From the NCBI GenBank assembly GCA_910578475.1, contig CAJTRK010000008.1:31082-95081 (forward strand): a DNA stretch of 64,000 nt, given 5' to 3'. Below are positions 35,213 through 59,416 of this stretch, piece by piece. A program made the translations under genes and the position numbers. Positions within the stretch are counted from its first letter, which is position 1, and every line of letters begins with the position of its first letter. Source of the stretch: an uncultured Lachnospiraceae bacterium. Its GTDB lineage: Bacteria > Bacillota > Clostridia > Lachnospirales > Lachnospiraceae. The notes beneath the pieces are model-generated. The model was given only the letters and a program-made list of their open reading frames with translations, did not search any database and was not told the origin of the DNA.

Positions 35213-35276
35213 CTGCATTCTGCACAACGGAAGAAGTTATCTGATTTCATAATAAGGAAAGGATGGAAAATACTTT

Positions 35277-35840
35277 ATGGGTTCAAAAATTTCAATTGAG
35301 AGTTTGGAAATTGAGGGATTAAAAATAATAACTCCCTTCTATGCCGAAGACGAGAGAGGGTATTTTCTCAAAGATTTTGAAAGAAATATATATCAGAGTC
35401 TGGGACTGGAAAATTCATTGAGCGAAAGCATGGTCACAAAATCCAAAAAGGGTGTTATACGCGGCCTGCATTTTCAGATAAACCACCCACAGACCAAACT
35501 GGTGAGTGTTTTACGGGGGGAAGTGCTGGATATCGCAGTAGATTTAAGAAAAAATTCAGACACTTTCGGAAAGTGGAAGGCGGTGACATTGTCGGAAGAA
35601 AATCGAAAAACCTTTTATATACCGGCGGGCTTTGCTCATGGTTATCAAGTTTTACGGGAAGATACGCTGGTTTCATACAAATGTATTGGGGATTATGATG
35701 CGGAGACTGATTCTGGAATCGCATATCATGATAAAGACCTGGGTGTTGTCTGGATGGAAGGTTATGGGGTAATTACATCCGAAAGAGATAAAACGCTCAT
35801 GACCTTTGAAGAATTTAAGAATACCTATGGCGGATTGTAG
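35277..35840 (+). CDS. RfbC/RmlC-family cupin sugar-nucleotide 3,5-(or 5-)epimerase
   Basis: DERGYFLKDF, GVIRGLHFQ, KLVSVLRGEVLDIAVDLR and FYIPAGFAHGY. Confidence 0.8.
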   Translation: MGSKISIESLEIEGLKIITPFYAEDERGYFLKDFERNIYQSLGLENSLSESMVTKSKKGVIRGLHFQINHPQTKLVSVLRGEVLDIAVDLRKNSDTFGKWKAVTLSEENRKTFYIPAGFAHGYQVLREDTLVSYKCIGDYDAETDSGIAYHDKDLGVVWMEGYGVITSERDKTLMTFEEFKNTYGGL

Positions 35841-35857
35841 GATGGAAAGGAGAAATT

Positions 35858-36808
35858 TTGAAAGAAAGGAAAGTTATCATCACGGGGGCAGCTGGCTTTA
35901 TCGGATATGCCCTGACTAAGAAATATAGTGAAATGCAGGTAAAAGTTTACGCTGTTGTCAGGGAAGAAAGCCAAAATCTTCAGGATTTGCATGGTTTGCA
36001 TGGTGTTGAGATTGTCAAATGCAATCTTGAACACTATACGCATTTAGAAGAATTGATTGAAGAAAGGGAGTTTGATGCTTTTTTCCATTTAGCGTGGCAG
36101 GGTTCGGGCGGAAAGGATAAGAATAAAGGCGCACAAAATCTGGAAGTACAGCTGGATAATGTAAAATATTCCTGCGATGCGGTGCATGCGGCTAAGAAAC
36201 TGGGATGTCGTAAATTCATTTTCGCAGCAAGTCTCATGGAATATGAAGTCATGAAATTAATGGAAACGGAACTGGATTCCAATAAAAGAAACATTTACAT
36301 GACTGCAAAATTAACGGCGCATTATATGACCAAGATTGAAGCAAATGATTTGGGTATTGATTATAACGCGGCGATTATATCCAACGTATTCGGCAAAGGA
36401 GAAATTTCGGACCGGTTTATCTATACCACACTGTGTAATATGCTGCAGGGAGTGAGGACGAAATTTTCGGAAGCAAAGCAGCCATATGACTTTGTATATA
36501 TAGACGATGCGGCAGAAATGCTGGCCCTTGTAGCTGAAAAAGGCTTGAGGAATAAAAATTATTATATCGGGAGTATGGAGCCGCGCAGACTCAGGGATTA
36601 TATTTATGAAATGAGGGACTGTATAGACCCATCCCTTGAGATTGGAATCGGAGAATATAAACAGTACCTCGGAGTATATCTGACTTATGACGAGCTGGAT
36701 ATTAAGGCATGTTACAAAGATTTTGGTTTTACACCGCGTTATTCATTTAAAGACGGTATTATGCAGACAATAGAATGGTTGAAGACATTGAAGACATATG
36801 GAGGATGA
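35858..36808 (+). CDS. NAD(P)-dependent extended-SDR sugar-nucleotide epimerase/reductase
   Basis: VIITGAAGFIGYAL (GxxGxxG) and YMTAK (YxxxK). TTG start preceded by AAGGAG. Confidence 0.75.
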   Translation: MKERKVIITGAAGFIGYALTKKYSEMQVKVYAVVREESQNLQDLHGLHGVEIVKCNLEHYTHLEELIEEREFDAFFHLAWQGSGGKDKNKGAQNLEVQLDNVKYSCDAVHAAKKLGCRKFIFAASLMEYEVMKLMETELDSNKRNIYMTAKLTAHYMTKIEANDLGIDYNAAIISNVFGKGEISDRFIYTTLCNMLQGVRTKFSEAKQPYDFVYIDDAAEMLALVAEKGLRNKNYYIGSMEPRRLRDYIYEMRDCIDPSLEIGIGEYKQYLGVYLTYDELDIKACYKDFGFTPRYSFKDGIMQTIEWLKTLKTYGG

Positions 36809-36812
36809 TAGT

Positions 36813-37793
36813 ATGAAAAGAGTACACCCATTGAGAGCAGTCTATAAAGTAATTGATAATACATCTGCTGAGGACAAGAAAACACATTTAAGGGAATTTC
36901 CTAAAATAATCGAACTGGAACTTACGAATATCTGTAATTTTAAGTGTATGATGTGTAAGACCGGAGACGGAAGTTCCATACGAGAAAAAGGCATGATGAC
37001 AGACGAGATATTTGATAAGATGATTGCTGAAATCAAAGACAGGGATGTTGTGCTTAAATTTGTAGGACATGGTGAAAGCCTTTTGCACCCAAATTTCCTG
37101 AAATACGCCAAAATTGCGAAAGACAACGGCATACTCTGTCATCTTACAACAAACGGCAGCCGTTTGACGGAAGATATTATGCAGCAGCTTATCGATATGA
37201 AATTTGATTCTGTTAAATTTTCATTTCAGGGCATAGACAGAGAGAGCTATTTATTCATGAGACGGACAGACTTTTTTGATGGTCTGATGGATGTTATCAG
37301 TAAATTTTCCACGCTCAGAGGAGAAAAGGAAGCTCCCTATATTTCGCTCTCAACTTCTGTTACAGATGAATCGGAAGCGCAAATTGAGGAATTCAGGAAT
37401 AAATGTGAGAAGATTTGCGACGAACTGGAGGTTGGAAAGACCTCTCTTGAGTGGCTGAATACAAGCTTAATAGAAGACGAAAAGAAGCGGCATGAAATAG
37501 AAACAATGAAAAACGAGCAGGCGGGTTATAAAATACGTTATCGTTGCTGCACGCAGGTATGGGATATATTGCGGTTATGCTGGAATGGCGATGTAGGTTC
37601 ATGCTGCGGTGACTGGGACGGAGTTATGGTCTTGGGAAATATAAAAGACAATACGCTGAAAGAATTATGGACCTGTGACAAACAAAATTCATATAGGGAA
37701 ATATTGGCTGTTGGAAATTATGAAGCGCTCCCGTTGTGTAAACATTGTTATGACTATATGGGATATACGGGGAATGAAAACAAACTGGTTTAG
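36813..37793 (+). CDS. Radical SAM enzyme with a Cys-rich SPASM/twitch-like C-terminal domain
   Basis: LELTNICNFKCMMC is a CX3CX2C motif (36933-36956). The C-terminus reads CCTQVWDILRLCWNGDVGSCCGDWDG...LCKHC. GGAGGA precedes the ATG at 36813, which is 4 nt after the upstream stop. Confidence 0.8.
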   Translation: MKRVHPLRAVYKVIDNTSAEDKKTHLREFPKIIELELTNICNFKCMMCKTGDGSSIREKGMMTDEIFDKMIAEIKDRDVVLKFVGHGESLLHPNFLKYAKIAKDNGILCHLTTNGSRLTEDIMQQLIDMKFDSVKFSFQGIDRESYLFMRRTDFFDGLMDVISKFSTLRGEKEAPYISLSTSVTDESEAQIEEFRNKCEKICDELEVGKTSLEWLNTSLIEDEKKRHEIETMKNEQAGYKIRYRCCTQVWDILRLCWNGDVGSCCGDWDGVMVLGNIKDNTLKELWTCDKQNSYREILAVGNYEALPLCKHCYDYMGYTGNENKLV

Positions 37794-37829
37794 TCCTCAA
37801 GCTCGCAGGCTGAAAGAAAGGCATGGTTA

Positions 37830-38900
37830 ATGATGGACATCTCATGGTATAAGGGTAAAAAAGTATTGGTTACCGGTCATACGGGGTTTAAGGGTGCATG
37901 GCTTTGCCAGACTTTGTTTCTGGCAGGCGCGGACGTTGTGGGTTATGCCTTAAAAGCAGCTGAAAACTGCGCTTTATTCGACTTAATACATCTGGAAAGC
38001 CATATGAAATCAATAGAGGGCGATATACGGGATTTAGAACATCTGATGAAAGTTCTGACTGAGGAAAAGCCGGAAATTGTAATTCATATGGCGGCGCAGC
38101 CGCTTGTAAGAGAATCTTATAAGGAACCGGTATATACATATGAGACCAATGTAATGGGAACGGTAAATGTCCTTGAGTGTATAAGACAGACGGATTGTGT
38201 CAAATCGTTTCTGAATGTCACGACGGACAAAGTTTATCATAATAAGGAATGGGAATGGGGATACCGTGAAAATGAGGAACTGAACGGTTATGACCCCTAT
38301 TCCAATTCGAAGTCCTGCTCGGAACTTGTCACAAGCTGCTATGTCAATTCTTTTTTTCAGGGCCTGGACATGGCGGTTTCCACGGCCAGGGCCGGAAATG
38401 TCATAGGCGGCGGAGATTTTGCAGCAGACCGGATATTGCCCGACTGCGTAAGAGCGGCAATGAAAAAAGATGATATTATTTTGCGGAATCCGTATTCCGT
38501 CCGGCCTTACCAACATGTGCTTGAGGCTTTGAACGCATATTTAACGATAGTGCGAAAACAGTATGAAGATAAAACTTTAGCGGGAAGTTATAATGTTGGA
38601 CCGGATGAAAACGGATGCTGCTCGACAGGTGAGCTTGCGACAATATTCTGTGAAAAATGGAATGATTTGACGGGGGCAGGCATCAAATGGATTGCACAAT
38701 CGGATGCGGAAGCTGTGCATGAGGCGAATTTTTTAAGGCTGGATTCATCGAGGATAAAATCCGTTCTTGGATGGAGGCCTGTTTGGAATATTGAAACCGC
38801 GATACATAAGACTGCGGACTGGTCAAAGGCGTATGCCGATAACGAGGATATGGAGAAGATTACGAATGTGCAGATTAGGGAGTATTATCGGATGCAATAG
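37830..38900 (+). CDS. rfbG: CDP-glucose 4,6-dehydratase
   Basis: WYKGKKVLVTGHTGFKGAWLCQTLFLAGADVVGYAL, YSNSKSCSELV and the length (356 aa) are typical of RfbG. Confidence 0.85.
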   Translation: MMDISWYKGKKVLVTGHTGFKGAWLCQTLFLAGADVVGYALKAAENCALFDLIHLESHMKSIEGDIRDLEHLMKVLTEEKPEIVIHMAAQPLVRESYKEPVYTYETNVMGTVNVLECIRQTDCVKSFLNVTTDKVYHNKEWEWGYRENEELNGYDPYSNSKSCSELVTSCYVNSFFQGLDMAVSTARAGNVIGGGDFAADRILPDCVRAAMKKDDIILRNPYSVRPYQHVLEALNAYLTIVRKQYEDKTLAGSYNVGPDENGCCSTGELATIFCEKWNDLTGAGIKWIAQSDAEAVHEANFLRLDSSRIKSVLGWRPVWNIETAIHKTADWSKAYADNEDMEKITNVQIREYYRMQ

Positions 38901-38943
38901 AGCATTATCTAAAGTCAAAACTGCAGTTTGCACTTATATTGTA

Positions 38944-39189
38944 ATGAAAGAGTGGATTGAGAACGGAGAGTTTCATCAAGTCAATAAAATTGTAGTTGTG
39001 GGAACAAAACGGCAGGCAGTTATGGTTAAATATCTTTTTCGGAAGTCCGAGAAGAACATATATTATTGTGAGAAGCCTGACCAAATTTGCGAATGTAAAA
39101 ACAGAACCAAATGGATTGTATTTGAAAACAAAGCAAAGAGAAATCTTTTGCGTAAAGATTACCATGTATTGATAGTGCCTGATATTTGA
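38944..39189 (+). pseudogene. Possible decayed or orphan copy of the Rossmann-like module (82-aa ORF with no RBS)
   Basis: KIVVVGTKRQAVMVKYLF...IYYCEKPD...DYHVLIVPDI loosely follows the recurrent module pattern. No Shine-Dalgarno sequence precedes the ATG at 38944. It lies in a 305-nt gap. Confidence 0.2.
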
Positions 39190-39206
39190 GTATCTGGGAG
39201 AAGACA

Positions 39207-40457
39207 ATGAGAGTATTAGTAGTTGATGTGAATTTTGATTATAAAAATCCGATGTATCGACAATTTTATACATCCCTTATGGGATGTATGGAAGTGGATT
39301 TTTTTGGACCGGGGTATGTATCGCGAGCGTGTCTGGAAAAGGGAATCGGCCAATATTTAAGTGAAAATGGAAAATATGATGCAATATTAGTGGGAACTTA
39401 TTTTGTCTATTCTTCAGGGGAAAAAGGATTACGATTTGATGCTTATAAGGTACATCGGCATACGATACCTTTTTATCGTGTGAATGATGCCTGGCAATGT
39501 TGTGGCAAAATACTGGAAGAACTGAAAAAGATTGAGGGCATCGTTAAATTATTTATATATTATGAAGACTTTATGTCATTGCCTGTTGGTGATAAAAGCA
39601 TCTGCCAGAAACTAATCGACTGCGGTTTCTATATTCTGAGCTGGCCGATAGAATATATGAAAGAGTATTCTGCGAGGCTGATGCACCAATATAGTTATCT
39701 GACAAATAACGCATATAAATTAGCCAGTGAATATACGGCAAATTATGTACCGATTCCGCTTCACGGAATTGGATATCATGAAATATTTATCAGAAATTTT
39801 TCTGACAGGGACTATGACTGGTGTATTCCCGGAAATAGAGCAAAAATTTATTATCCGGAAAGAGCCGTAGTGCACGAGACGCTGGAAGAAAAACGGAAAA
39901 AAATATGGGATGACGACCCTTTTCAAACATTATCCGTTGATACAATCAGGCGGGAACATATGGAATGGTATCACTTTCGGAATAAGCAGGAAAAAATTTT
40001 GTCCTGGCTGTGGGGGAAAGATAAATATATCCCATCCCATCCCAAAATGAATTATATTGCAGCTTGCAGAGAACAGTACCTGGAGAGTATGAGAGCTTCG
40101 AAACTTGTATATGCGGACTGCGGAGCCGGTATGTGTTTTGTGAGAAAGTATTTTGAAGCCGGAGCATGTGGAGCGGTATTGGTTGCAAAAAAAGTTCCGG
40201 GAATGAAAGAAATGGGATTTATCCATGATGTGAATTGCATTATTGTGGAAAAATATGATGACATCATAAATATTGATAAAAAATACACAATGCAGGAACT
40301 GGAAGTTATTGCAAAAAATGGCCAAAAGTTTATTATGGAAAAGCATATGCTTGTTCACAGGGCGGAGGCATTGTCACGGACGATAAAGTCAATTATGGAT
40401 GGTAATTATATCGGCGCATTTTGGGAAGATGGAAATTATATGATAAAGCAAAGATGA
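39207..40457 (+). CDS. Hypothetical protein, divergent CgeB-like / GT-B C-terminal domain
   Basis: LVYADCGAGMCFVRKYFEAGACGAVLVAKKVPGMKEMGFIHDVNCIIVE resembles the sugar-donor half of GT-B enzymes. The ATG at 39207 follows GGGAGAAG. Confidence 0.35.
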   Translation: MRVLVVDVNFDYKNPMYRQFYTSLMGCMEVDFFGPGYVSRACLEKGIGQYLSENGKYDAILVGTYFVYSSGEKGLRFDAYKVHRHTIPFYRVNDAWQCCGKILEELKKIEGIVKLFIYYEDFMSLPVGDKSICQKLIDCGFYILSWPIEYMKEYSARLMHQYSYLTNNAYKLASEYTANYVPIPLHGIGYHEIFIRNFSDRDYDWCIPGNRAKIYYPERAVVHETLEEKRKKIWDDDPFQTLSVDTIRREHMEWYHFRNKQEKILSWLWGKDKYIPSHPKMNYIAACREQYLESMRASKLVYADCGAGMCFVRKYFEAGACGAVLVAKKVPGMKEMGFIHDVNCIIVEKYDDIINIDKKYTMQELEVIAKNGQKFIMEKHMLVHRAEALSRTIKSIMDGNYIGAFWEDGNYMIKQR

Positions 40458-40467
40458 GGGAACAGAG

Positions 40468-41601
40468 ATGGATTTTATACCAGTAAACGAACCGCTGTTA
40501 AATGGAAATGAGAAAAAATATTTATGTGAATGTATTGATACGGGATGGATTTCTTCGGAAGGTCCGTTTGTTAAAGAATTTGAAAACAAAATGAGCGCAA
40601 CAGTCAATCGGAAATATGGCATTGCCGTATCCAACGGAACGGCGGCGTTGGAGGTAGCGGCCCAGGCGCTCGGAATTCAAAAAGGCGATGAAGTAATCAT
40701 GCCTGCATTTACGATTATTTCCTGTGCTATGGCAGTTACGAAACTTGGAGCGGTTCCGGTATTGGTAGACAGCAGTCTGGATACCTGGAATATGAATGTG
40801 GATGAAATAGAAGCCAAAATAACGTCCAGAACAAAGGCAATTATGATTGTTCATATATACGGTCTTCCGGTTGACGCAGAGCCGATTCTTGCGCTTGCGG
40901 AGAAATATAATTTAAAAATCATCGAAGATGCGGCAGAAATGCACGGACAGACCTATAAAGGTAAATGTTGTGGAAGTTTCGGCGATATCAGCACATTCAG
41001 CTTTTATCCGAATAAGCACATAACAACCGGCGAAGGCGGCATGATAGTTACGGATGACGAAGAGCTGGCGGAAAGATGCCGTATGCTGAGAAATTTATGC
41101 TTTAGAAAAGATTTCAGATACATGCACGATGAAATCAGTGATAATTACAGATTTACGAATCTGCAGGCGGCAGTCGGACTCGCACAGTTGGAAAGACTGG
41201 AGGAGTTTGTGGAGCGTAAAAGAACAATGGGCAGCTATTATACAGAGAAGCTGCGCAAGATAGAAGGCGTAACGCTCCCTGTTGAAAAGACGGAATATGC
41301 GGAAAATATTTATTGGGTATATGGATTGTTATTGAAGGAAGACATGCAGGCCGATAACCGGGAAGTACAGAAGCTGCTGGCAGAGGAAGGAATTGGTTCA
41401 AGAACCTTTTTCTGGTGTATACATGAGCAGCCTGTATACCGTAATATGGGATTATTTTTGGATGAAACTTATCCCAATGCCGAGTATCTTGCAAGAAAAG
41501 GGTTTTATATTCCAAGCGGTCTGGCACTGACAACGGAACAAATGGACGAAGTAGTGCGGAAGCTGACGAAAGTAATGGAACTGTTAAACAGGCGGAAATA
41601 A
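40468..41601 (+). CDS. DegT/DnrJ/EryC1/StrS-family PLP sugar aminotransferase
   Basis: IPVNEPLLNGNEKKYLCECIDTGWISSEGPFVKEFE, SNGTAAL and FSFYPNKHITTGEGGMI. The catalytic Lys is present, so this is an aminotransferase rather than an E1-type 3-dehydrase. Confidence 0.85.
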   Translation: MDFIPVNEPLLNGNEKKYLCECIDTGWISSEGPFVKEFENKMSATVNRKYGIAVSNGTAALEVAAQALGIQKGDEVIMPAFTIISCAMAVTKLGAVPVLVDSSLDTWNMNVDEIEAKITSRTKAIMIVHIYGLPVDAEPILALAEKYNLKIIEDAAEMHGQTYKGKCCGSFGDISTFSFYPNKHITTGEGGMIVTDDEELAERCRMLRNLCFRKDFRYMHDEISDNYRFTNLQAAVGLAQLERLEEFVERKRTMGSYYTEKLRKIEGVTLPVEKTEYAENIYWVYGLLLKEDMQADNREVQKLLAEEGIGSRTFFWCIHEQPVYRNMGLFLDETYPNAEYLARKGFYIPSGLALTTEQMDEVVRKLTKVMELLNRRK

Positions 41602-41644
41602 AGCGGAAAAATATTGGAAAACAGTATCCGGAGGTATGAGGTAA

Positions 41645-42793
41645 ATGAGAAAGAAAATTGGATTATTACTGCCTACAAGGCCGCAGGATGGAGGACAGCA
41701 TCAGTATGCTTTATTGATTATGAACGCCCTTGTAAAAAAGAAAGATGCCGATTACGATTTGGTAGCATTCTGCGGAAACGATTATTGGCGCAAATGGTGT
41801 AAGAAAAAGGGAGTGCGGTATATAAAACATTCCATGCCGGATATTTCCATGAAAGAGAGGCTGTTTAATTATCGATTTCCATTGCCTGCAAAGTTATATT
41901 ATACCTATATGACATCATTTGGAAAAACAATCCGGGCAGAAAAGATAGATATCCTGTTTTCTACGCAGCAGGGAATGTATCTGCCTGATTATGCGGTAAA
42001 ACTGATGAGTCCGGTGCATGACCTGATGCACAGATATGAACCGGATTTCCCGGAAGTCAAAGATTCCTTCGAAAGCCGTGAGCTTCATATGAAGAGTCTG
42101 GCGAAATACACAACCTGCATACTGGTAGACTCCAAAGTAGGTAAAAGACAGTTCGAGGAATCTTATATCAAAACAAAAAAAAGACGACCGCATATTATCA
42201 GTCTGCCGTTTATAGCGCCTGAACATATACAGAAAACAGAAGAAGCGTACATAGAAGTTCCCGATAAATATGTTTTCTATCCTGCGCAGTTTTGGAAACA
42301 CAAAAATCATGTGAATCTGCTGAAAGCAATTCAAATCCTGGCGGAAAGCCTCAGCGATATCCATCTTGTTTTGGTCGGTTCGGAAAGAAATAACGGCAGA
42401 GAGATAAAAAAGTATATTCGGGATAATGGATTGGAAAGCCATGTTACGATTTTGGGGTTTGTCAGTGATGAAAATATAACTTACCTGTACAGACATGCGG
42501 TCGGCCTGATAATGCCTTCTTATTTCGGACCAACGAATATTCCGCCGTTAGAGGCTATGGCGCTTGGATGTCCGGTGGCGGTATCCAATAAATATGCCAT
42601 GCCCGAACAGGTAGGCAGGGCAGGATTGTTATTTCATCCCGATTCGCCGGAAGAGATGGCAGACTGCATCAAAAGATTATGGACTGATGATAAGCTAAGA
42701 GAAAGAATGCGGAAAGACGGATATCAGAGAAGTAAGATGTGGACAAAAGAGAAATTTGAAAAGAAATTATACAAAATTATAGATACCATTTAA
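41645..42793 (+). CDS. GT4 (GT-B, group 1) glycosyltransferase
   Basis: FYPAQFWKHKNHVNLLKA, LVLVGSE and LIMPSYFGPTNIPPLEAMALGCPVAVSN. Confidence 0.8.
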   Translation: MRKKIGLLLPTRPQDGGQHQYALLIMNALVKKKDADYDLVAFCGNDYWRKWCKKKGVRYIKHSMPDISMKERLFNYRFPLPAKLYYTYMTSFGKTIRAEKIDILFSTQQGMYLPDYAVKLMSPVHDLMHRYEPDFPEVKDSFESRELHMKSLAKYTTCILVDSKVGKRQFEESYIKTKKRRPHIISLPFIAPEHIQKTEEAYIEVPDKYVFYPAQFWKHKNHVNLLKAIQILAESLSDIHLVLVGSERNNGREIKKYIRDNGLESHVTILGFVSDENITYLYRHAVGLIMPSYFGPTNIPPLEAMALGCPVAVSNKYAMPEQVGRAGLLFHPDSPEEMADCIKRLWTDDKLRERMRKDGYQRSKMWTKEKFEKKLYKIIDTI

Positions 42794-42824
42794 ATCAGCA
42801 CATATATTCATAAGGGAGAAGAAT

Positions 42825-43259
42825 ATGGGACATGTAGAAGAAGTAAAGAAAAAAGATAAACTGCTGGCAATGATTATTCGTAACGATTATACTTGTGAAG
42901 GCGTGGATTTTATCACGCCGAACGAGTATTCACAGCAGGTAGCTTATATGCACCATCCGACAGGCAAAACGATAGACGCGCATGTGCATAATATGGTTCA
43001 CAGAAATGTGGTATTAACACAGGAAGTTCTGTTCATCAAAAAAGGTATTTTAAGAGTGGATTTTTACGATGAATACGAAGACTATCTGGAAAGCAGAGAT
43101 TTGCATGCCGGAGACATTATACTGCTTGTTTCGGGCGGACATGGTTTCCAGGTGTTGGAAGAAGTTGAAATGATAGAGGTCAAACAGGGGCCTTACGCCG
43201 GGGACCAGGATAAAAAAAGATTCGAAGGCGTGGACAATGCTCAGATAGTATATCGGTGA
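42825..43259 (+). CDS. Cupin-fold protein (sugar isomerase/epimerase-like; specificity unknown)
   Basis: HHPTGKTIDAHVH...VLFIKKGILRVDFYD...GDIILLVSGGHGF follows a two-motif cupin pattern. It lies between GT and methyltransferase genes. Confidence 0.45.
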   Translation: MGHVEEVKKKDKLLAMIIRNDYTCEGVDFITPNEYSQQVAYMHHPTGKTIDAHVHNMVHRNVVLTQEVLFIKKGILRVDFYDEYEDYLESRDLHAGDIILLVSGGHGFQVLEEVEMIEVKQGPYAGDQDKKRFEGVDNAQIVYR

Positions 43260-43275
43260 CAGGGAAGAGAAAGGC

Positions 43276-44047
43276 ATGGTGAACAGTATGGAAGTTTTTC
43301 AGGATTATGCGTATTACTACAATGCGTTTTATCAGGATAAGGACTATACGGCCGAAGCAAAACAGGTTGACGAACTGTTGAAGAAATACGGAGAGAATGT
43401 AAAGAATATAATTAATTACGGATGCGGGACCGGCAGACACGATATTGAACTGGCCAAAATCGGATATTGCTGCACCGGCATTGATATGAGCCGGCTCATG
43501 ATAGATATCGCAAAAGAAAACAGTCAAAATGAAAAGATGCCGATTCATTTTGAGGTGGGCGATATTCGGAATTATGAGCCTGAAAAAAAGTATGATGCGG
43601 TTATATCGTTATTTCATGTTATAAGTTATCAGAATGAAAATAAAGATATACTGGATGCTTTTTGTTCTGCAAGAAAAGCTTTAGATGGGGGGGGGCATTT
43701 TTTTGTTTGATGTATGGTATGGACCAGGCGTATTGAGCGATAAACCGGAAGTGCGGGTAAAAGAGGTCCAGGATGATAAGCACAGACTGGTGCGTATTGC
43801 AAGACCTGTTATGTATGATGAAAAAAATGTCGTAGATGTTTGTTATGAAGTACTGGTTATCAATAAAAAATCAAATGAAACAAAAATGATAAACGAAACA
43901 CATCATATGCGGTATTTCTTCAGGCCGGAACTGGAATTTTATTTGAAAAACGCAGGGTTTGAATTGGTCGATAATCTGGATTGCATGACGCTCGGAAAAA
44001 CCGGTTACGATTCGTGGACAAGTTACTTTGTCGCGAAAGCTGTGTAA
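43276..44047 (+). pseudogene. Class I SAM-dependent methyltransferase split by a frameshift in a G9 tract (candidate phase-variable gene, OFF as sequenced)
   Basis: ORF 43276..43710 (IINYGCGTGRHDIELAK...LFHVISY...ARKALDGGGHFFV-stop) and ORF 43685..44047 (GGGIFLFDVWYGPGVL...) are consecutive parts of one methyltransferase. The junction is G9 (43687-43695) followed by CA and T7. Removing one G fuses them into a protein of about 256 aa. Confidence 0.8.
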
Positions 44048-44072
44048 TGATGATTGTAAAGGGAGGAAGCTC

Positions 44073-45122
44073 ATGGTAAAGCTGTTAGTCTGGGGAACCG
44101 GAAACTTTGCGCGAAAATTTATAAACAACGGGTATGGAGGAGAAATCATCGGATTTATAGAAACACATAAATCTGCCGACAGGTTCATGGACAGGCCGGT
44201 ATTCGACAGCCGGAATCTGCCGGAGGAATACGACTATATTATTGTTGCCAATTCTTATGTCGCAGAGATATATGATTTGTGCCTGAAACAAAATATCGAT
44301 ATTTCCAAAATGATTTTTTTATACGGTGTAAAAAACAGGATAGGCTGTGCCGAACCTTCCGTATTAAAGGAAATATTATTAGAAAAAAATTATACGGTTT
44401 ATTGTGCGGAGTTTCATTTACTGGAAGATACGTTTTTGAATGTTGATATGGCTGAATATCAGCGATTAAACAAACGTCCCAGTTTTGATATCCGGGAGCA
44501 GTACATGTGGCCGGTTATCAAGGATAAATATTCTTATGCCGGAACCATCGGAAACTATTTCTGGCAGGATTTATGGGCGGCGAGACTGATTCTGAAATCG
44601 GGCATCCGGCAGCATTTCGACATCGGCTCCAGACTGGATGGGTTTATTGCTCATTTGCTGGCGGCGGATATAGACGTTACGATGATTGACGTCCGCAAAT
44701 TTCCGGGAGAGGTAGAACGCCTGCATACAATTGTGGATGATGCGACGAGCCTTCACCAAATACCTGATGACAGCATCGGAAGTATTTCCGCTTTATGCTC
44801 ACTGGAACATTTTGGACTCGGAAGATACGGCGATTCCATTGACCCGGAGGCATGTTTTAAATGCTTTGATAACATTCAAAGAAAAATGAAGAAAGGAGGC
44901 AGATTGTATATATCGCTTCCTATCGGAAAAGAAAGAGTGGAATTTAACGCCCACAGGGTATTTTATGCAAGCACGGTAGAAGAATGTTTTTCCTCTCTGC
45001 GGCTGAAAGAATTTGCCTGTACGGCGGAAGGAAAGATTGAATATAATGTAGATATTCATAAGTATGACGAAGACACTCACAACGGTGAGTACCGGTATGG
45101 CCTGTTCTTTTTTGAAAAATAG
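44073..45122 (+). CDS. DUF268-like putative methyltransferase with an N-terminal Rossmann-like module
   Basis: HFDIGSRLDGFIAHLL...VTMIDVR, SALCSLEHFGLGRYGD and KKGGRLYISLPIG. The N-terminus reads LLVWGTGNFARKFINNGYGGEIIGFIE. GGGAGGA precedes the ATG at 44073. Confidence 0.5.
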   Translation: MVKLLVWGTGNFARKFINNGYGGEIIGFIETHKSADRFMDRPVFDSRNLPEEYDYIIVANSYVAEIYDLCLKQNIDISKMIFLYGVKNRIGCAEPSVLKEILLEKNYTVYCAEFHLLEDTFLNVDMAEYQRLNKRPSFDIREQYMWPVIKDKYSYAGTIGNYFWQDLWAARLILKSGIRQHFDIGSRLDGFIAHLLAADIDVTMIDVRKFPGEVERLHTIVDDATSLHQIPDDSIGSISALCSLEHFGLGRYGDSIDPEACFKCFDNIQRKMKKGGRLYISLPIGKERVEFNAHRVFYASTVEECFSSLRLKEFACTAEGKIEYNVDIHKYDEDTHNGEYRYGLFFFEK

Positions 45123-45194
45123 ATTGTTTATGGATATCATGAAATAAAAGAAGATGAATGTCAGAAAACAATCATCATTCGGAGAATACATAAT

Positions 45195-46064
45195 ATGAAT
45201 ATTGTAAAGATATCCGATGGACTTGGAAACCAGATGTTTCAATATGCCTTTGCCCGTAAACTTCAGATAGATACGGGCAGAACAGTATATTTGGATATAC
45301 GTTATATTAATAACGAAGACAGGGATGCGCGAAAAGAAAATAATTATTATACCGACAGAAACGATTGCAGACAATATGGATTGGATAATTTCAGAATCAG
45401 ATTACCTGTTGCGGACGAGAAACATTTGCGGAACTGGAATTACCTTCATCAAAAAGGAAAAGTGCATCAGGGAATTTACACAATGGCAAAGAACGGCCTG
45501 TGGCCGTTTGGCTACTGTGATGAAGACATGAACGGTGTAAATACAAATACGAATCTGCCGATGTATTATAAAGGATATTTCTTTCATTTAAAATATTTCG
45601 ATGCCATCAAAGAAGAATTAAAAAAAGAATTTTTATTAAAGCACAAACTGAAACTGCCGGCAGAATTAAGAGAAATTTTATCAGACAACAATACCGTCAG
45701 CGTTCATGTGCGTAGAGGTGATTTTTTAAAACTGAACAGAGATATAAGCCGGAAAGACTATTATCCGAGAGCGCTGCAAATGATAGAAGCGAAGGTAGAA
45801 AATCCCATATACCTGTTTTTTTCCGATGATATAGCATGGGTAAAAGAAAATATAAGGACAAAGGGGAAGGCTGTCTATATCAGCGATATGGGATTTCGGG
45901 ATTATGAGGAATTGGCGATAATGAAACACTGTAAATACAATATTATCGCAAACAGCACTTTTAGCTATTGGGCGGCTTATTTAAATTCGCATCCGGACAA
46001 AATAGTAATTTGTCCCAGACATTGGAAAAGCAATATTATTCCGAAAGACTGGGTGTGCCTTTAG
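45195..46064 (+). CDS. GT11-family (alpha-1,2-fucosyltransferase-like) glycosyltransferase
   Basis: SDGLGNQMFQYAFARKL, VSVHVRRGDF and IIANSTFSYWAAYL are canonical GT11 motifs. Confidence 0.85.
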   Translation: MNIVKISDGLGNQMFQYAFARKLQIDTGRTVYLDIRYINNEDRDARKENNYYTDRNDCRQYGLDNFRIRLPVADEKHLRNWNYLHQKGKVHQGIYTMAKNGLWPFGYCDEDMNGVNTNTNLPMYYKGYFFHLKYFDAIKEELKKEFLLKHKLKLPAELREILSDNNTVSVHVRRGDFLKLNRDISRKDYYPRALQMIEAKVENPIYLFFSDDIAWVKENIRTKGKAVYISDMGFRDYEELAIMKHCKYNIIANSTFSYWAAYLNSHPDKIVICPRHWKSNIIPKDWVCL

Positions 46065-46127
46065 GCAGTTTTTGAATGAAATTATGATGGAAACGTCAGA
46101 CAGAAAAATGGAAAAGGAGAAAAATCA

Positions 46128-46616
46128 ATGAAAAAAGGTATTATCGGAGTATTATCATTATTAACAGGTGCGGCAGTAGGAGCAGCGGCAGGCGCGGTAA
46201 GCGCAGGAAAGAATGCAGGAGAGAAGATAAACAGCAGGCAGGAACTTGCTGATAAACATCTTGCATTATATCTGATGATGAATCAGTGGGTAAAAGTGAA
46301 ACAGGAAGGGAAAAATCTGTCTTCTTATTTTGAAAAGAATGGTTATAAGAAGATTGCCATATATGGCATGAACTATGTAGGAGAGACGCTGTTGGAAGAG
46401 CTTAAAGGAACAGGCGTGGAAGTTGCATATGCAATAGATAAAAATGCAGAAAGAATTTATGCGGATATCGATGTATATACACCGGATGATGATTTGGGAC
46501 AGGTAGATGCTGTCGTTGTCACCGCAATTACTTTTTTTGATGAAATAGAAGAGCTGTTAAGCGATAAGACAGACTGTCCGGCGATTTCCTTAGAAGATGT
46601 ATTATATGAAGTATAA
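46128..46616 (+). CDS. Small protein: a Gly/Ala-rich hydrophobic N-terminus plus a stand-alone copy of the Rossmann-like module
   Basis: MKKGIIGVLSLLTGAAVGAAAGAVSAG is followed by KKIAIYGMNYVGETLLEELKGTGVEVAYAIDKN...VDAVVVTA. Confidence 0.5.
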   Translation: MKKGIIGVLSLLTGAAVGAAAGAVSAGKNAGEKINSRQELADKHLALYLMMNQWVKVKQEGKNLSSYFEKNGYKKIAIYGMNYVGETLLEELKGTGVEVAYAIDKNAERIYADIDVYTPDDDLGQVDAVVVTAITFFDEIEELLSDKTDCPAISLEDVLYEV

Positions 46617-46633
46617 AGTATGGTGAAAAAAAT

Positions 46634-47989
46634 ATGCAGACTGTTTCCATCATCATAACCGTATACAACGGAGCGGATTATCTGGAGGAATGCCTGGAAA
46701 GCGTGTTATCCCAGACATTAAGTGATACGGAGGTTATCTGTGTAGACGACGCTTCGACGGATAACACGCCTCAGATTCTGAAGGCCTATGAGAATAAAAT
46801 AACTGTCATCACCAATACGGAGAACTGCATGGCCGGAGAGTCCAGGAACAGAGGCTTTCAAAAGGCGGTTGGCGAGTATGTCGTATTTTTGGACGCGGAT
46901 GACGTCTATGAGCCGGATATGCTGCAGAAAGCTTATCATAAAGCCAAATCCTGTGGAGCGGATATCTGCATTTTTAAAGAGGATTTATTTTCGGACAGCC
47001 TTGAGAAGCGGACGAATTATGCTTACGCCGAGTCAATAATGAAAGAACTGGGAGAGCGGGCCTTTTTTTCCCCGAAAGAGCTGTCTGATACGCTTTTTGA
47101 CCTGTGGAACGGATGGGCCTGGGATAAATTATTCCGCCGGGAGTTTATTTTGGAGACAGGCTTAAAATTCCAGAAGCTGAAATCATCCAATGACGGTTTC
47201 TTTGTGCACGCTGCGCTTGCCTGTGCGGAAAGAATTTCGCTGCTGAATGAAGTTCTGGTTCATCATAGGATGGGAAATGGGAACAGCGTATCCAATACGC
47301 GTGACCAGGCATGGGAATCCTGTTTGATGTACCTGAAAGAACTGAGAAGCTATTTGCTTCATAAAGGGTTGTTTGCGTGTTATGAAGGAAGTTATCTCAA
47401 CTGGACGATGGACTTCCTGTATTGGAATTATCAGACGCTGAATGAAATAAACCGGGGAAAGCTGGCGGATGCCATGAGAAGTTTTTTCCTTGATGAGCTG
47501 AATGTGCCGCAGTATGACAGAAAAGACTTTTATAATGATTTTTACGAGTGGTTTGCCGGCTGCATCATCAGACAGGAAGAACATAAAATTCCGCTTTCGG
47601 AAGATGAACGGTTTCGGAAAATATATCAGCAGAATAAGCAGAAAATGGAAGCATTATATCAATATCTGTCTTCACGTCATTGGAAAGCGGCATTATGGGG
47701 AGCAGGAATCCGGGGACGGGCATTCGCAGAAGTATACGGCGGAAAATGGGACTGCCTGGAGTGTGCGTATGACATGGACGAGAGTAAACAGGGGAAAATG
47801 CTGCCAGGCGGGCTTTTGATTCGGAAATTTGATGTACGGAAGAAAGATGAAATTGATTGCATTTTAGTCCTGAACGAGGCGCATCTGCTATCCACGGCAG
47901 AAAGCTTAGGTGAAAAAAAAGCAGTTCTTTTTGATATGAATCTTTATCTCGATACGCCATATGAAATCGAAGATTGTGTAGTGAAATGA
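46634..47989 (+). CDS. Family-2 glycosyltransferase with a C-terminal Rossmann-like module
   Basis: VSIIITVYNGADYLEECLESVLSQT, VICVDDASTDNT and FLDADD. The C-terminus reads AALWGAGIRGRAFAEVYGG...AYDMD. Confidence 0.8.
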   Translation: MQTVSIIITVYNGADYLEECLESVLSQTLSDTEVICVDDASTDNTPQILKAYENKITVITNTENCMAGESRNRGFQKAVGEYVVFLDADDVYEPDMLQKAYHKAKSCGADICIFKEDLFSDSLEKRTNYAYAESIMKELGERAFFSPKELSDTLFDLWNGWAWDKLFRREFILETGLKFQKLKSSNDGFFVHAALACAERISLLNEVLVHHRMGNGNSVSNTRDQAWESCLMYLKELRSYLLHKGLFACYEGSYLNWTMDFLYWNYQTLNEINRGKLADAMRSFFLDELNVPQYDRKDFYNDFYEWFAGCIIRQEEHKIPLSEDERFRKIYQQNKQKMEALYQYLSSRHWKAALWGAGIRGRAFAEVYGGKWDCLECAYDMDESKQGKMLPGGLLIRKFDVRKKDEIDCILVLNEAHLLSTAESLGEKKAVLFDMNLYLDTPYEIEDCVVK

Positions 47990-48065
47990 ATATGTGCCGG
48001 TATATATATCATATTATATAAAATGGATACGGAAAGAGATATTGAAAAGGGATGGAGAAAAAATA

Positions 48066-49430
48066 ATGGATGATATCAAAGTATCAGTTTTGGTATATGT
48101 GTTAAATGATAAAGTTCATATAGAGAAGTGCGTGAGAAGCGTTATGCAGCAAACCCTGAAGGAGCTGGAAATACTGCTGATTGATGGAGGCAGTACCGAT
48201 GGTACGCTGGAAAAATTGGAACAGCTGCAAAAAGAGGATTCCCGGATAAAGATAATCAGGAGCGGCGCCGGTGTAGGTTTGCAGTTCAATACCGGATGCA
48301 AGGCGGCAGCGGGGAAATATATCGGAATATGTGAATCGGATGATTATCTGCTCCCGGATATGTACGAGCGGCAGTACGCGGTTGCGGAGCAGTTTGAACT
48401 GGACGTATTAAGGGCAAATATAAATCGTTTTTGTGGAGATGGGGACAGGCAGTATGATTTTCCGTTTGCGGTATCTGCCGACAGAACATTGTATGATACG
48501 CTTCTGTATCCGCAGGAGGATGCAAGGTTTTTGGGGTTGGGAGTGAACTGCTTCTGGAGCGGATTATACAGAAAAGAATTTTTACTGGCTAAGGATATCT
48601 CTATGAACGAGACAAAAGGCGCTTCTTATCAGGATACGAGCTTTTCTTTTCTGACACAGATGTATGCGGAGCGGGCCTATGTGATGAGCGATGCTTTTTA
48701 CTGCTATCGCATTGACAATCCAAATTCCTCTGTCAATAATCCGCAGAAGGCAGCTTTGCTGAATACGGAATACCGGTTGTTGAAAGAGAAGCTGAAACAA
48801 CGTAATCTTTGGGAAAAGTACAGGGAAATATATTGGAAATGGCGGGTCAACGGTTATTTCTGGGCCTATGATAATGTATCGGAAGAGGGGAAAGCCGAGT
48901 ATCTTCCGGTCTTTTATAAAGACATCAGGGAAGAAATGGAGTCAGAACTTTACCTGGGAACGGAACTTTCCGGAAAGGAACGGGCGTTATGTGAAAGCGG
49001 CAGAGGTTCTCTGGCGGAATTTGGTGATTTTCTGGAACGGGCGGATGCGCTGAGAAAACAGGAAGAAAAGAAAATAAGAGAAATCGGGACAGACGGTCAA
49101 ACGGTTATTTTCGGAGCGGGAAATCTGGGACTGCTGGCAAGTGGATATCTGGAACAGAAAGGGAAGAAGGCGGCTGCCTATATCGATAATGCTGCCTGGA
49201 AATGGGACAGCCTTTTTTACGGTCTTCCGGTTTTATCACCCGAAGAAGGCGTCTGTCAATATCCGGACGCTGCGTATATTATTGCGAATGCCGCTCATGG
49301 ACAGGAAATGAAAGAACAGCTGAACAGTCTGGGAATCCGTGATGACAAAGTCGTTATCTGTGACAATTATGATTTGTTTATCGCGCATATCTTAGTTCCT
49401 TATTGGAAGAAGGGCGGCAGCAATGATTAG
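48066..49430 (+). CDS. Family-2 glycosyltransferase with a C-terminal Rossmann-like module
   Basis: VSVLVYVLNDKVHIEKCVRSVMQQT, ILLIDGGSTDGT and CESDDY. The C-terminus reads VIFGAGNLGLLASGYLEQKGKKAAAYIDN...GLPVLSPEE. The ATG at 48066 is preferred over the track start at 47994. Confidence 0.8.
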   Translation: MDDIKVSVLVYVLNDKVHIEKCVRSVMQQTLKELEILLIDGGSTDGTLEKLEQLQKEDSRIKIIRSGAGVGLQFNTGCKAAAGKYIGICESDDYLLPDMYERQYAVAEQFELDVLRANINRFCGDGDRQYDFPFAVSADRTLYDTLLYPQEDARFLGLGVNCFWSGLYRKEFLLAKDISMNETKGASYQDTSFSFLTQMYAERAYVMSDAFYCYRIDNPNSSVNNPQKAALLNTEYRLLKEKLKQRNLWEKYREIYWKWRVNGYFWAYDNVSEEGKAEYLPVFYKDIREEMESELYLGTELSGKERALCESGRGSLAEFGDFLERADALRKQEEKKIREIGTDGQTVIFGAGNLGLLASGYLEQKGKKAAAYIDNAAWKWDSLFYGLPVLSPEEGVCQYPDAAYIIANAAHGQEMKEQLNSLGIRDDKVVICDNYDLFIAHILVPYWKKGGSND

Positions 49431-50610
49431 TATAATTGTACCCGTTTATAATGTCGGTTCGTATTTACCAAAATGTATCGACAGTATCTTAAAACAGACC
49501 TGCGGTGACTTTGAGCTGATTCTGGTGGACGACGGTTCAACGGATGATTCGCCTCAGATTTGTGACAGCTATAAAGAAAAGGACGCAAGAGTTGTCGTCA
49601 TACATAAACAGAATGAAGGCCTGGTCAGGGCAAGAAAGACAGGACTGCAAAAGGCAGCTGGCCAATATATCTGCTATGTGGATGGCGATGACTGGATAGA
49701 AGCCGATATGATAGAGCATTTATCGGAAAAAATGGCGGAGACAGGAGCTGACCTGGCAGCTTCCGGCCTTTATTGTGAGTCGGAAGATTCTGTCCAGAAA
49801 TTACATGGAAAATTGGAAGCCGGAATTTATGATACAAAAGAGATTCTTTCAATCATGTTATATACCGGAGAATTTTATGAATTTGGCGTCAGCCAGTTCG
49901 CCTGTACAAAATTGTTTCGAAGAGATTTATTATGGGATGTCCAGATACAGGTGGATGACAGAATTAATTGCGGTGAAGATGTGGCCGTGACATATCCCTA
50001 TATTCTCCGGACACAAAAGATTTGTATATCGGATTATATCGGATATCACTATATACAGCGGGCCGGTTCCATCGTAGGATGTTTTGATTCTGACGAATAT
50101 GACAGAAATAAAATACTGATTGCATATTTGAAAAATATCTTTGACCGGTCAGCTTATGCGGAATGTCTGCTCAGGCAGTTAAACCAGTATGCCAAAAATT
50201 TATTTCTGACACGCAATATCGCCTGTTTTGATGTTCTTCAAAAGGATGAAATACTGATGCCTTATGGCGGCATACCGGTAAATGCCCGCATTATCCTGTA
50301 TGGGGCCGGAAAAATGGGACAGAGCCTGTACAGGTATCTGAAAGGCCGGGATTCCATAGAAGTGGTGGACTGGCTGGATAAAAATTCCGCCGTATATCAA
50401 AAAAAAGGTATGGAAGTGCATTGCCCCGATTGTTTGAAAAAAATACAGGATAAGGCATATGATTTTCTCTTGATTGCGGTAAACAGCCAGAAGGCGGTAA
50501 AAAGCATTTATTGCTGTTTAGAGGAAATGGGCGTAAACGCGGAAAAGATAAAGTGGCTGAGGGAAGAGTTTATCAGGGAAGATTACTTTATACTGGATGC
50601 GTTTGCATGA
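49423..50610 (+). CDS. Family-2 glycosyltransferase with a C-terminal Rossmann-like module
   Basis: ISIIVPVYNVGSYLPKCIDSILKQT, LILVDDGSTDDS and YVDGDD. The C-terminus reads IILYGAGKMGQSLYRYLKGRDSIEVVDWLDKN. It overlaps the upstream gene by 8 nt. Confidence 0.8.
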   Translation: MISIIVPVYNVGSYLPKCIDSILKQTCGDFELILVDDGSTDDSPQICDSYKEKDARVVVIHKQNEGLVRARKTGLQKAAGQYICYVDGDDWIEADMIEHLSEKMAETGADLAASGLYCESEDSVQKLHGKLEAGIYDTKEILSIMLYTGEFYEFGVSQFACTKLFRRDLLWDVQIQVDDRINCGEDVAVTYPYILRTQKICISDYIGYHYIQRAGSIVGCFDSDEYDRNKILIAYLKNIFDRSAYAECLLRQLNQYAKNLFLTRNIACFDVLQKDEILMPYGGIPVNARIILYGAGKMGQSLYRYLKGRDSIEVVDWLDKNSAVYQKKGMEVHCPDCLKKIQDKAYDFLLIAVNSQKAVKSIYCCLEEMGVNAEKIKWLREEFIREDYFILDAFA

Positions 50611-50649
50611 AGTTTTGAGAACTTTGAGCGGGGAAAAAGGAGAAACGGC

Positions 50650-51837: not shown

Positions 51838-51883
51838 TTATAGAAACAGAACACTTGGAAACGATTGTTTCCATAGCTTATAA

Positions 51884-59414: not shown

Positions 59415-59416
59415 GA

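Follow-up and report, generated by a model that had tools for sequence, protein, structure and literature searches.

A methyltransferase gene of an uncultured Lachnospiraceae bacterium (assembly GCA_910578475.1, contig CAJTRK010000008.1, positions 31,082 to 95,081) is split by a run of nine guanines, and the length of this run differs among public assemblies that are otherwise identical around it. In the window, by which we mean the whole stretch of 64,000 nucleotides analysed here, the gene (43276-44047) is frameshifted (OFF). We estimate a probability of roughly 0.8 that the run is a genuine slippage-driven ON/OFF site that happens to be OFF in the window. We are somewhat less sure that it also serves as an adaptive switch for the methylation of the flagellin glycan.

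A poly-G tract splits the methyltransferase reading frame

The tract (43687-43695) lies inside the reading frame, at codons 138-140 of 256, and has the length of at least 7-8 nt that we took to define a contingency tract. The sequence at 43680-43710 reads TTTAGAT-GGGGGGGGG-CA-TTTTTTT-GTTTGA, so that AAAGCTTTAGAT stands directly 5' of GGGGGGGGG, and the CA dinucleotide, seven thymines (43698-43704), and GTTTGA follow. An earlier note, made from the letters of the window, had proposed that two consecutive open reading frames (ORFs) are the halves of one class I methyltransferase and that the break falls exactly at this G9 run, followed by CA and T7. Both proposals hold: the coordinates agree with the sequence, removal of a single G joins the frames into one 256-aa ORF (...ALDGGGIFLFDVWYGPGVL...) that ends at 44047, and the repaired protein matches Pfam methyltransferases. 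A check of the frames likewise agreed with the note in that G9 reads LDGGGHFFV-stop and G8 continues to 44047. By frame, G5, G8, and G11 are in register, and G6, G7, G9, G10, and G12 are out of it. The 144-aa upstream fragment lacks residues 141-256. The downstream frame (43685-44047) is probably not translated independently, because no Shine-Dalgarno sequence was read upstream of its ATG at 43685.

The mechanism that we propose is a classical one. Slipped-strand mispairing during replication would add or remove guanines at the hypermutable repeat 43687-43695. A G8 tract (in principle also G5 or G11) would give the full 256-aa enzyme, i.e., the ON state; with G7, G9, G10, or G12, translation would end at 143-153 residues, short of the C-terminal half of the fold, and the G9 of the window would accordingly be an OFF allele. 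The enzyme would N-methylate a nucleoside diphosphate (NDP)-amino-6-deoxyhexose supplied by the neighbouring cytidylyltransferase, 4,6-dehydratase, and DegT aminotransferase, and its switching would change one tailoring step of the flagellin glycan. A second tract, in the gene at 19267-20310, would switch independently, which would allow at least four combinations per strain.

Tract length varies among otherwise identical genomes

All population evidence was drawn from ENA, Logan, and NCBI assemblies, and the relatives of this organism, which is itself known only from metagenome-assembled genomes, come mostly from mouse-gut catalogues. For each tract length, the predicted product was looked up by exact sequence to count the alleles. 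The G8 allele (256-aa product, P0001) was present on 230 contigs and the G9 allele (144 aa, P0121) on 156, followed by G10 (153 aa; 4 contigs), G7 (152 aa; 1 contig), and G12 (145 aa; 1 contig). The products of G5, G6, and G11 were absent from the exact-sequence look-ups of public contigs. P0001, which came from a homology search, is 100% identical to the G8-repaired protein, and the collection index holds G8 in 508 blocks and G9 in 273 blocks. As a control, neighbouring genes were each found as exact copies on 270-474 public contigs, and truncated forms of them were not abundant in the same look-ups.

We then compared the tracts at the DNA level, using 14 public loci retrieved with 10-kb flanks and aligned pairwise to the window by megablast. 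On the haplotype of the window, with 0 single-nucleotide polymorphisms (SNPs) over ~20.4 kb, the tract was G7 (locus L092), G8 (L001), or G9 (the window and L004). G10 occurred on the same haplotype in L091 (0 SNPs over 3.3 kb) and L090 (2 SNPs over 9.3 kb). Haplotype B, at 56 SNPs from the window, carried G8 (L003) and G9 (L006) in loci that are mutually identical outside the tract. The same was true of haplotype C (117 SNPs from the window), with G9 (L005) and G10 (L088, L089), and G12 (L094) was found on a fourth background. The source accessions are ERZ28569012 for L001, ERZ14651004 for L004, ERR675650 for L092, SRR32634120 for L003, and SRR31673576 for L006. Tract lengths thus differ among otherwise identical genomes and recur on different backgrounds. 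The earlier note had asked for a comparison of lengths across related genomes, in which a single fixed length with an intact gene would have spoken for an assembly error. Five lengths (G7, G8, G9, G10, and G12) were found instead, several of them on one strain background, as predicted for a slippage hotspot.

At least four independent changes in tract length took place without a single substitution in the surrounding 20 kb, which excludes an ordinary fixed indel. Given 0 SNPs in 20,434 sites, change at the tract would be at least ~10^4 times faster than at the average site. A haplotype-linked T at 33282 was the single other indel across loci in the 20 kb. The 39 other homopolymers of at least 7 nt (all A/T, four of them A8) and the one G6 run all kept their length among the 25 loci compared.

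These comparisons bear on the possibility that the G9 is a sequencing or assembly error, in the window or generally, and that the true tract is G8. Homopolymers are error-prone and our evidence consists of assembled contigs, which speaks for an error. On the other hand, G9 is found on all of the 156 contigs mentioned above, which include SPAdes contigs at 50-80x (NODE_1154 at coverage 80 and NODE_95 at coverage 51) and NCBI metagenome-assembled genomes (MAGs), the other long runs are stable, and G9 far outnumbers G7, unlike a symmetric or deletion-biased error pattern. A per-read Illumina error of ~1% cannot make the consensus wrong 40% of the time. A consensus-level error is very unlikely because of the 50-80x SPAdes contigs and the large excess of G9 over G7. 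Further, the window and L004, a SPAdes contig assembled independently at 80x, do not differ over 20.4 kb including the G9, and the error explanation is therefore not needed. We give it hardly any credence.

With regard to gene decay, all OFF alleles were repaired in silico to G8 (13 loci on 4 haplotypes), and the resulting proteins had 0 amino-acid differences and 0 internal stops. The length change therefore toggles an otherwise intact ORF, with OFF and ON alleles identical outside the tract. Since every repaired OFF allele encodes the exact ON protein, the gene is not decaying, and a plain pseudogene, for which the earlier note would have expected further disabling mutations in relatives, can be rejected on the basis of these 13 loci.

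It was also considered that the G9 allele is not a null but a low-expression allele, in which transcriptional slippage or +1 ribosomal slippage partly restores the frame. As read from the sequence, a +1 shift on GGG-GGG-GGG would allow perfect re-pairing of tRNA-Gly, the G9 allele is very frequent, and productive slippage on a G tract has been discussed for the pili of Bifidobacterium breve (PMC9187656). Against this, no stimulatory element or conserved slippery context was seen at the site, G7, G10, and G12 occur as well, and the in-frame G8 is the commonest length. We regard such recoding as improbable, and slippage between ON and OFF alleles during replication as the better account of the tract.

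A second tract in the same genome

The window contains only two G/C runs of at least 7 nt, i.e., the G9 tract and a G8 run at 19632-19639 inside the gene at 19267-20310. This second gene encodes an intact protein with a GxGxG motif (DFGCGKG). Methyltransferase matches to it are all sub-threshold (Methyltransf_23 at E=0.004, below the cut-off), as are all matches in Pfam, NCBIfam, and PDB, so that no family could be assigned; these matches weakly point to a putative methyltransferase.

The second tract behaves like the first. The G8 allele (347 aa) was found on 233 contigs, the G9 allele (126 aa, P0138, ending ...EEGGGK-stop) on 32 contigs, and the G7 allele (130 aa, P0143, ending ...EEGGQVRTDI-stop) on 14. 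In DNA, the window haplotype over 20.4 kb carried G7 (L101, 1 SNP), G8 (the window), and G9 (L095, 0 SNPs), and G7 or G9 were also found on other haplotypes. Two of our loci, L095 and L001, belong to the same contig (ERZ28569012 scaffold_113), in which the second gene is OFF and the methyltransferase is ON. The window has the opposite combination, with the second gene ON and the methyltransferase OFF, and the two tracts therefore switch independently. Within one study (BATT21-1), a single haplotype showed G8 and G10 at the methyltransferase tract and G9 and G7 at the second tract. A further variant of the second gene, P0140 (346 aa, 25 contigs), stays in frame and has a single GAG in place of the GAGGAG just before the tract (19620-19631); this is a second, small slippage polymorphism.

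Chance expectation for long G runs

The earlier note had called the G9 run conspicuous in an AT-rich block. This needs to be qualified, as the block has a GC content of ~40% and the composition alone does not make the run significant; what stands is that the run is an outlier among run lengths. The pattern GGGGGGGG had 3 overlapping matches in the window compared with 1.42 expected from dinucleotide shuffles, and 24 of 100 shuffles reached 3. By this test, a run of G8 or G9 is not significant in a stretch of 64 kb, and a first-order Markov model likewise expects 1.09 runs of at least 8 nt in the window. Runs of 6-7 nt are strongly depleted in the window (2 observed vs. ~15.7 expected under the same model), which makes the two long runs outliers in the empirical run-length distribution. 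Corrected for this depletion, ~0.14 runs of at least 8 nt would be expected compared with the 2 observed (Poisson p ~0.009, by our own arithmetic). Codon usage is in line with this, in that GGG is the rarest glycine codon of the window (13%) and GGG-GGG is used in only 1 of 64 Gly-Gly pairs of the window's other genes, that pair being the second tract. Because the run is not significant by composition, the decisive evidence is its length polymorphism across public assemblies and not its presence.

Lineage distribution and recurrence in other species

Orthologues of the methyltransferase were collected from a scan of GTDB genomes (80 loci/species, the best match at 77% identity). The tract site could be located by regular expression in 31 of these 80 loci, and in those 31 it reads xGG with mixed codons and a G run of at most 6. 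A sister strain in the same 90% clusters has neither tract, with ALNPGGCF and EEGEAS at the respective sites. The absence of the tracts from the sister strain and from the 31 orthologues points to recent, lineage-specific acquisitions.

The loci that flank the orthologues in other species contain long runs of their own, with nine G/C runs of at least 9 nt vs. 2.6 expected, at the same time as runs of 6-7 nt are depleted (32 observed vs. 110 expected). These tracts (G9-G11) fall within genes for methyltransferases, GT4 proteins, and acyltransferases that neighbour the orthologue (L054/L106, L012, L061, L059, L060, L038, and L028), in species that are mostly mouse-gut Lachnospiraceae. In the bacterium 1xD42-87 species (L054/L106), an FkbM methyltransferase occurs as a 337-aa ON form on 338 contigs and as forms of 52 aa (204 contigs) and 47 aa (31 contigs). 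In the Lachnospiraceae COE1/MD335 species (L012), a TIGR04325-family methyltransferase is found in G10 forms (57), a +1 form beginning MICGGGG... (28), and others. The L061 species has a tract in motif I (GCGGG) of the methyltransferase orthologue (253 aa on 6 contigs, 210 aa on 5) and another in a neighbouring acyltransferase (344 aa on 4 contigs, split into 105 + 227 aa on 5). In the L059 species, a gene with a GxGxG motif is split into 141 and 139 aa, with one intact 270-aa copy, on too few contigs for a judgement. At least three other species, of which all or most are Lachnospiraceae, therefore have variable G9-G11 tracts in the same islands, and poly-G switches recur in glycan-tailoring genes there. 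On L106, a public contig from the 1xD42-87 species, there are two tracts in a single island (at 6732 and 10130), one ON and one OFF. In L060 (Fretibacterium) and L061 the tract is inside the orthologue itself at a site different from that of the window, in L061 within the S-adenosylmethionine (SAM) motif I.

It is possible that the tract is no more than a tolerated mutational hotspot, which slips in a dispensable gene whose frameshifts drift up in frequency, with no selected ON/OFF function. Consistent with this, OFF alleles make up ~40% of contigs, the sister strains and the 31 orthologues manage without the tract, and a G8-G9 run is not improbable from composition. A dispensable gene would, however, be expected to collect second lesions, which the OFF alleles of 13 loci on 4 haplotypes do not have, and the in-frame length is still the commonest. 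Drift would also fit poorly with the ~3- to 8-fold depletion of 6-7 nt runs alongside an excess of long ones, with the use of the rarest glycine codon twice within the tract, and with the recurrence of variable tracts among glycan-tailoring genes in three or more further species. On balance, we think it unlikely that a hotspot of this kind explains the data, and we favour an ON/OFF site that would bring a selective benefit.

The switched enzyme and its predicted sugar pathway

The repaired protein scored above the cut-off for five Pfam domains (Methyltransf_25 at 59 bits, cut-off 27, and also _31, _11, _23, and _12). Its motif NYGCGTGRH is invariant, and the GxGxG motif I together with the Pfam matches and the Rossmann-like fold identifies a class I SAM methyltransferase. 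Among PDB sequences, phmmer found DesVI (8.5e-16), KedS8 (4.7e-12), and TylM1 (4e-8), and CalS10 is also related by sequence. The AlphaFold2 (AF2) model had a mean confidence (pLDDT) of 82, and Foldseek aligned it with TM-scores of 0.80 to CalS10, 0.79 to TylM1, and 0.75 to DesVI. The similarity to TylM1 and DesVI is clear, but the top matches are methyltransferases that have yet to be characterised, and C-methyltransferases share the fold; membership in the TylM1/DesVI type is thus only suggested. In the model, the tract falls at a helix-to-strand junction (helix 122-134, strand 136-148) after the SAM-binding motifs I-III. The OFF truncation would remove all later strands and the substrate lid, and the 144-aa product should therefore be inactive.

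The enzyme is probably an N-methyltransferase that acts on an NDP-amino-6-deoxyhexose, judging from its modelled fold and its linkage to an aminotransferase gene. The glycoform shift between ON and OFF could consequently be 14 or 28 Da, or the loss of a sugar, and not only the 14 Da that the earlier note had in mind, because an amino N-methyltransferase of nucleotide sugars is the more likely activity. The amino group would likely be made by the DegT-family aminotransferase at 40468-41601. In 75 of the 80 species, a homologue of this aminotransferase is encoded no more than 3 kb away from the methyltransferase orthologue, so that the two are genetically coupled. This aminotransferase resembles 4-aminotransferases such as perosamine synthetase (Table 1). 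A 144-aa cupin-like protein, encoded directly upstream of the methyltransferase, accompanies it in 65 of the 80 species. The cupin was considered as a 3,4-ketoisomerase of the FdtA/QdtA/Tyl1a type, which would imply a 3-dimethylamino sugar; this is unsupported, as the protein has only a weak match to the WbuC family and no PDB relative.

The sugar itself is predicted to be CDP-linked. A dTDP (Rml) pathway was dropped, as NCBIfam shows CDP-glucose enzymes in the nucleotide-sugar module (Table 1), and a GT4 glycosyltransferase is also among the genes around the switched gene. Inside the CDP-6-deoxyhexose gene set lies a radical SAM/SPASM enzyme (36798-37793) that reaches no curated family and for this reason may catalyse an unusual sugar modification. 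The downstream DUF268 methyltransferase-like gene (44073-45122) is preceded by a strong Shine-Dalgarno sequence of its own, AAGGGAGG, at ~44058, and the terminator scan found no + strand terminator-like site between 39293 and 44777. Polar effects of the switching on this gene should therefore be limited, and it could be expressed whether or not the switched gene is translated. Scans for promoters and terminators around the methyltransferase gave nothing above the shuffled expectation.

A glycan island within the flagellar filament cluster

The glycan genes are embedded in a cluster of flagellar filament genes, next to the flagellin gene, and are bracketed by GT2-TPR genes (Table 1). The GT2+TPR architecture is a predictor of flagellin glycosyltransferases in Clostridium islands (PMC13317340). 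The island encodes GT2, GT4, and GT11 proteins, a TagF-like protein, several methyltransferases, a LicD protein with a choline kinase, and a BCCT transporter. In a crude hydropathy scan of the island, the BCCT transporter was the sole protein with multiple transmembrane segments, and no Wzx flippase, Wzy polymerase, or ABC exporter was found. Without an exporter, cytoplasmic protein glycosylation fits better than a wall polymer. The flagellar glycosylation context and the Firmicute host that the earlier note had assumed are thus borne out, by the flagellar genes upstream (FlgK/FlgL-like, FliW, FlaG, FliD, FliS, and flagellin), the GT2-TPR flanks, the missing exporter, and the assignment to Lachnospiraceae.

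Table 1. Positions of the tracts, the switched genes, and their neighbours in the 64,000-nt window.
Feature	Position	Strand	Remarks
Flagellar genes	47-10818	+	Rod/hook C-terminal-domain protein, FlgL-like, FliW, FlaG, FliD, FliS, flagellin (9718-10818)
Three GT2-TPR paralogues	10959-14220	-	Candidate flagellin glycosyltransferases
Glycan biosynthesis island	16556-58263	+	~42 kb, one strand
Second tract-bearing gene	19267-20310	+	347 aa, intact; GxGxG motif (DFGCGKG)
Second poly-G tract (G8)	19632-19639	+	In frame (ON) in the window
Nucleotide-sugar module overall	34421-38900	+	TIGR02623, TIGR01221, TIGR02622 above cut-off
Glucose-1-phosphate cytidylyltransferase	34421-35212	+	NCBIfam equivalog above cut-off
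RmlC-like epimerase	35277-35840	+	NCBIfam equivalog above cut-off
SDR reductase	35858-36808	+	Pfam
Radical SAM/SPASM enzyme	36798-37793	+	Pfam
CDP-glucose 4,6-dehydratase	37830-38900	+	NCBIfam equivalog above cut-off
DegT-family sugar aminotransferase	40468-41601	+	Best PDB match perosamine synthetase (3bn1, 1.8e-87)
Cupin-like protein	42825-43259	+	144 aa; weak WbuC-family match; directly upstream of methyltransferase
Complete methyltransferase gene	43276-44047	+	256 aa if G8; frameshifted (OFF) in the window
OFF-state N-terminal fragment	43276-43710	+	144 aa, ending ...ALDGGGHFFV-stop
C-terminal remnant frame	43685-44047	+	120 aa; ATG at 43685
G9 homopolymeric tract (switch)	43687-43695	+	Gly138-140 in G8 allele (GGG GGG GGC)
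DUF268 methyltransferase-like gene	44073-45122	+	Downstream of the switched gene; own Shine-Dalgarno sequence
Two further GT2-TPR paralogues	58302-60517	-	Close the island

A real switch could also act on a glycan of a cell-wall polymer or S-layer instead of flagellin. In favour of this, the island has TagF-like, IspD/TarI-like, LicD, and choline-kinase genes, as loci for teichoic-acid-type polymers typically do. The island scan argues the other way, as it found no flippase, polymerase, or ABC exporter and only the choline transporter as a protein with multiple transmembrane segments, and so does the position of the island between flagellin/FliD/FliS and the five GT2-TPR genes. TagF-like and methyltransferase genes are, moreover, reportedly part of the flagellin modification locus of Clostridioides difficile (in work of 2014 attributed to Faulds-Pain et al.), which we counted against a wall polymer. 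We consider a wall or S-layer acceptor unlikely, and flagellin is the acceptor that we prefer.

Several points weigh against the reading of the tract as a flagellin-glycan switch, in addition to the compositional result given above. Contig counts are not independent, as many runs possibly come from the same mouse colonies, and the ON:OFF ratio of 60:40 is only indicative. A scan of JGI metagenomes with AAAGCTTTAGATGGGGGN{0,9}CATTTTTTTGTTTGATG returned nothing. Mixture within populations, the switching rate, and reversibility within a lineage, as well as replication slippage as the cause, are deduced from differences between assemblies. The methyltransferase reaches no NCBIfam equivalog cut-off, and the call on its substrate and on N- vs. 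O-methylation is based on a remote fold match and gene linkage. The cupin has no recognisable ketoisomerase relative and no PDB relative by sequence. Lastly, flagellin is proposed as the acceptor from synteny and the missing exporter.

Other features of the island were noted in passing. The five GT2-TPR paralogues that bracket it are unusually many for a window with a single flagellin gene. A phosphocholine module (50650-55760) consists of LicD, an NTP-transferase/choline-kinase fusion, a second NTP transferase, and the BCCT choline transporter, and the presence of this LicD/choline-kinase/BCCT module inside a flagellar glycan island suggests that the flagellin glycan is decorated with phosphocholine. 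The stretch 20371-22862 holds the gene of a 743-aa protein with a citrate-lyase-ligase domain at its C terminus and, after it, a 77-aa ORF that weakly matches phosphopantetheine attachment sites; the two may represent a carrier-protein-dependent acylation step in the glycan pathway. A C2185-like_N domain is common to many island proteins (33286-51837), where it is fused to GT11, DUF268, GT2, and LicD, and a 162-aa protein at 46128-46616 has only a weak match to it.

Strains also differ in gene content. Compared with the window at 33286-35250, haplotype C (L005/L088, 1-1980) lacks the GT11-like gene at 33286-34398, and its cytidylyltransferase and RmlC-like genes are separated by a DegT-family gene of 445 aa. 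Owing to this cassette difference, the strains probably make different sugars; from its size, our guess is that the 445-aa gene encodes an E1-dehydrase-type enzyme. Two IspD/TarI-like cytidylyltransferase paralogues stand in tandem at 16556-18233, and this repeat seems to break assemblies, because many public contigs stop at ~17.4-17.5 kb.

Comparison with known switches and implications

The mechanism is known, i.e., that of a classical simple sequence repeat (SSR) contingency locus; new are the clade, the gene families, and the glycan chemistry. Our searches of the open-access literature turned up no description of SSR phase variation for Lachnospiraceae or for the flagellar glycosylation of clostridia. 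The closest parallel is the flagellin locus of Campylobacter jejuni, where Cj1295 controls one decoration of the flagellin glycan (PMC3068675). There too, intragenic G tracts of ~8-10 nt lie in flagellin O-glycan tailoring genes (Cj1295, the maf family; PMC6321876, PMC8355987), a change in length shifts the frame, and several tracts per island give combinatorial glycoforms. C. jejuni is, however, an epsilonproteobacterium without MutSL, and our host is a Gram-positive member of the Lachnospiraceae. The sugars differ as well (pseudaminic and legionaminic acids in C. jejuni; a predicted CDP-6-deoxyhexose, amino-sugar derivatives, and a phosphocholine module here), and the switched genes, class I and FkbM-type methyltransferases, are unrelated to Cj1295 and Maf. 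Switching in our case is deduced from differences between assemblies.

Other systems share single aspects. The sortase-pilus switch of B. breve is also one of a gut commensal in which an intragenic G tract toggles a surface structure; its tract-length mix shifts in the mouse gut, and replication slippage has been demonstrated by error-corrected sequencing (PMC9187656). It differs in belonging to the Actinobacteria and in affecting a pilus structural gene, in contrast to the glycan-tailoring enzyme and the between-assembly evidence described here. Neisseria lgt and pgtA likewise have poly-G tracts in glycan-building genes with stochastic surface glycoforms (PMC2192423, PMC2193922); those are glycosyltransferases of pathogens that act on lipooligosaccharide and pilin, unlike commensal methyltransferases of a putative flagellin glycan. 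The flagellar switch of C. difficile (RecV) resembles ours in that a Firmicute gut bacterium shows flagellar heterogeneity (PMC5386303), but it relies on a site-specific DNA inversion upstream of flgB that toggles whole flagella and toxins, with no SSR or glycan tailoring. With regard to the enzyme, TylM1, DesVI, CalS10, and KedS8 share its fold and size (TM-scores of 0.75-0.80, root-mean-square deviation of 2.8-4.4 A), an N-terminal aromatic-rich helix, and linkage to DegT genes. They differ in sequence (~20-22% identity, with no curated cut-off reached by our protein), in the nucleotide carrier (dTDP, compared with what is probably CDP here), and in serving antibiotic biosynthesis and not protein glycosylation.

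A broader possibility, which we hold only tentatively and at somewhat short of even odds, is that gut Lachnospiraceae have convergently evolved a Campylobacter-like 'phasome' centred on flagellin-glycan tailoring enzymes, mainly methyltransferases, in which several independent poly-G switches per strain would generate combinatorial glycoforms in vivo. Lachnospiraceae flagellins are dominant commensal antigens, and those of the CBir1 and A4 type are targeted by antibody and T cells in Crohn's disease and in mouse colitis. If the phasome exists, the near-even frequency of ON and OFF alleles in public gut metagenomes would reflect balancing selection by host immunoglobulin A (IgA), innate recognition, or flagellotropic phages, and the antigens under selection would belong to a class implicated in colitis.

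Regardless of the phasome, the locus is a mechanism of heritable variation that can be scored from sequence, with two independent switches in one strain and similar ones in at least three further species. Tract lengths in metagenomes would allow ON/OFF states to be correlated with host genotype, IgA coating, inflammation, and phage load without culture. 'Split' methyltransferases in such MAGs should not be called pseudogenes or silently fixed as homopolymer errors. The finding adds Gram-positive commensals to Campylobacter and Helicobacter as hosts of SSR contingency loci in flagellar glycosylation.

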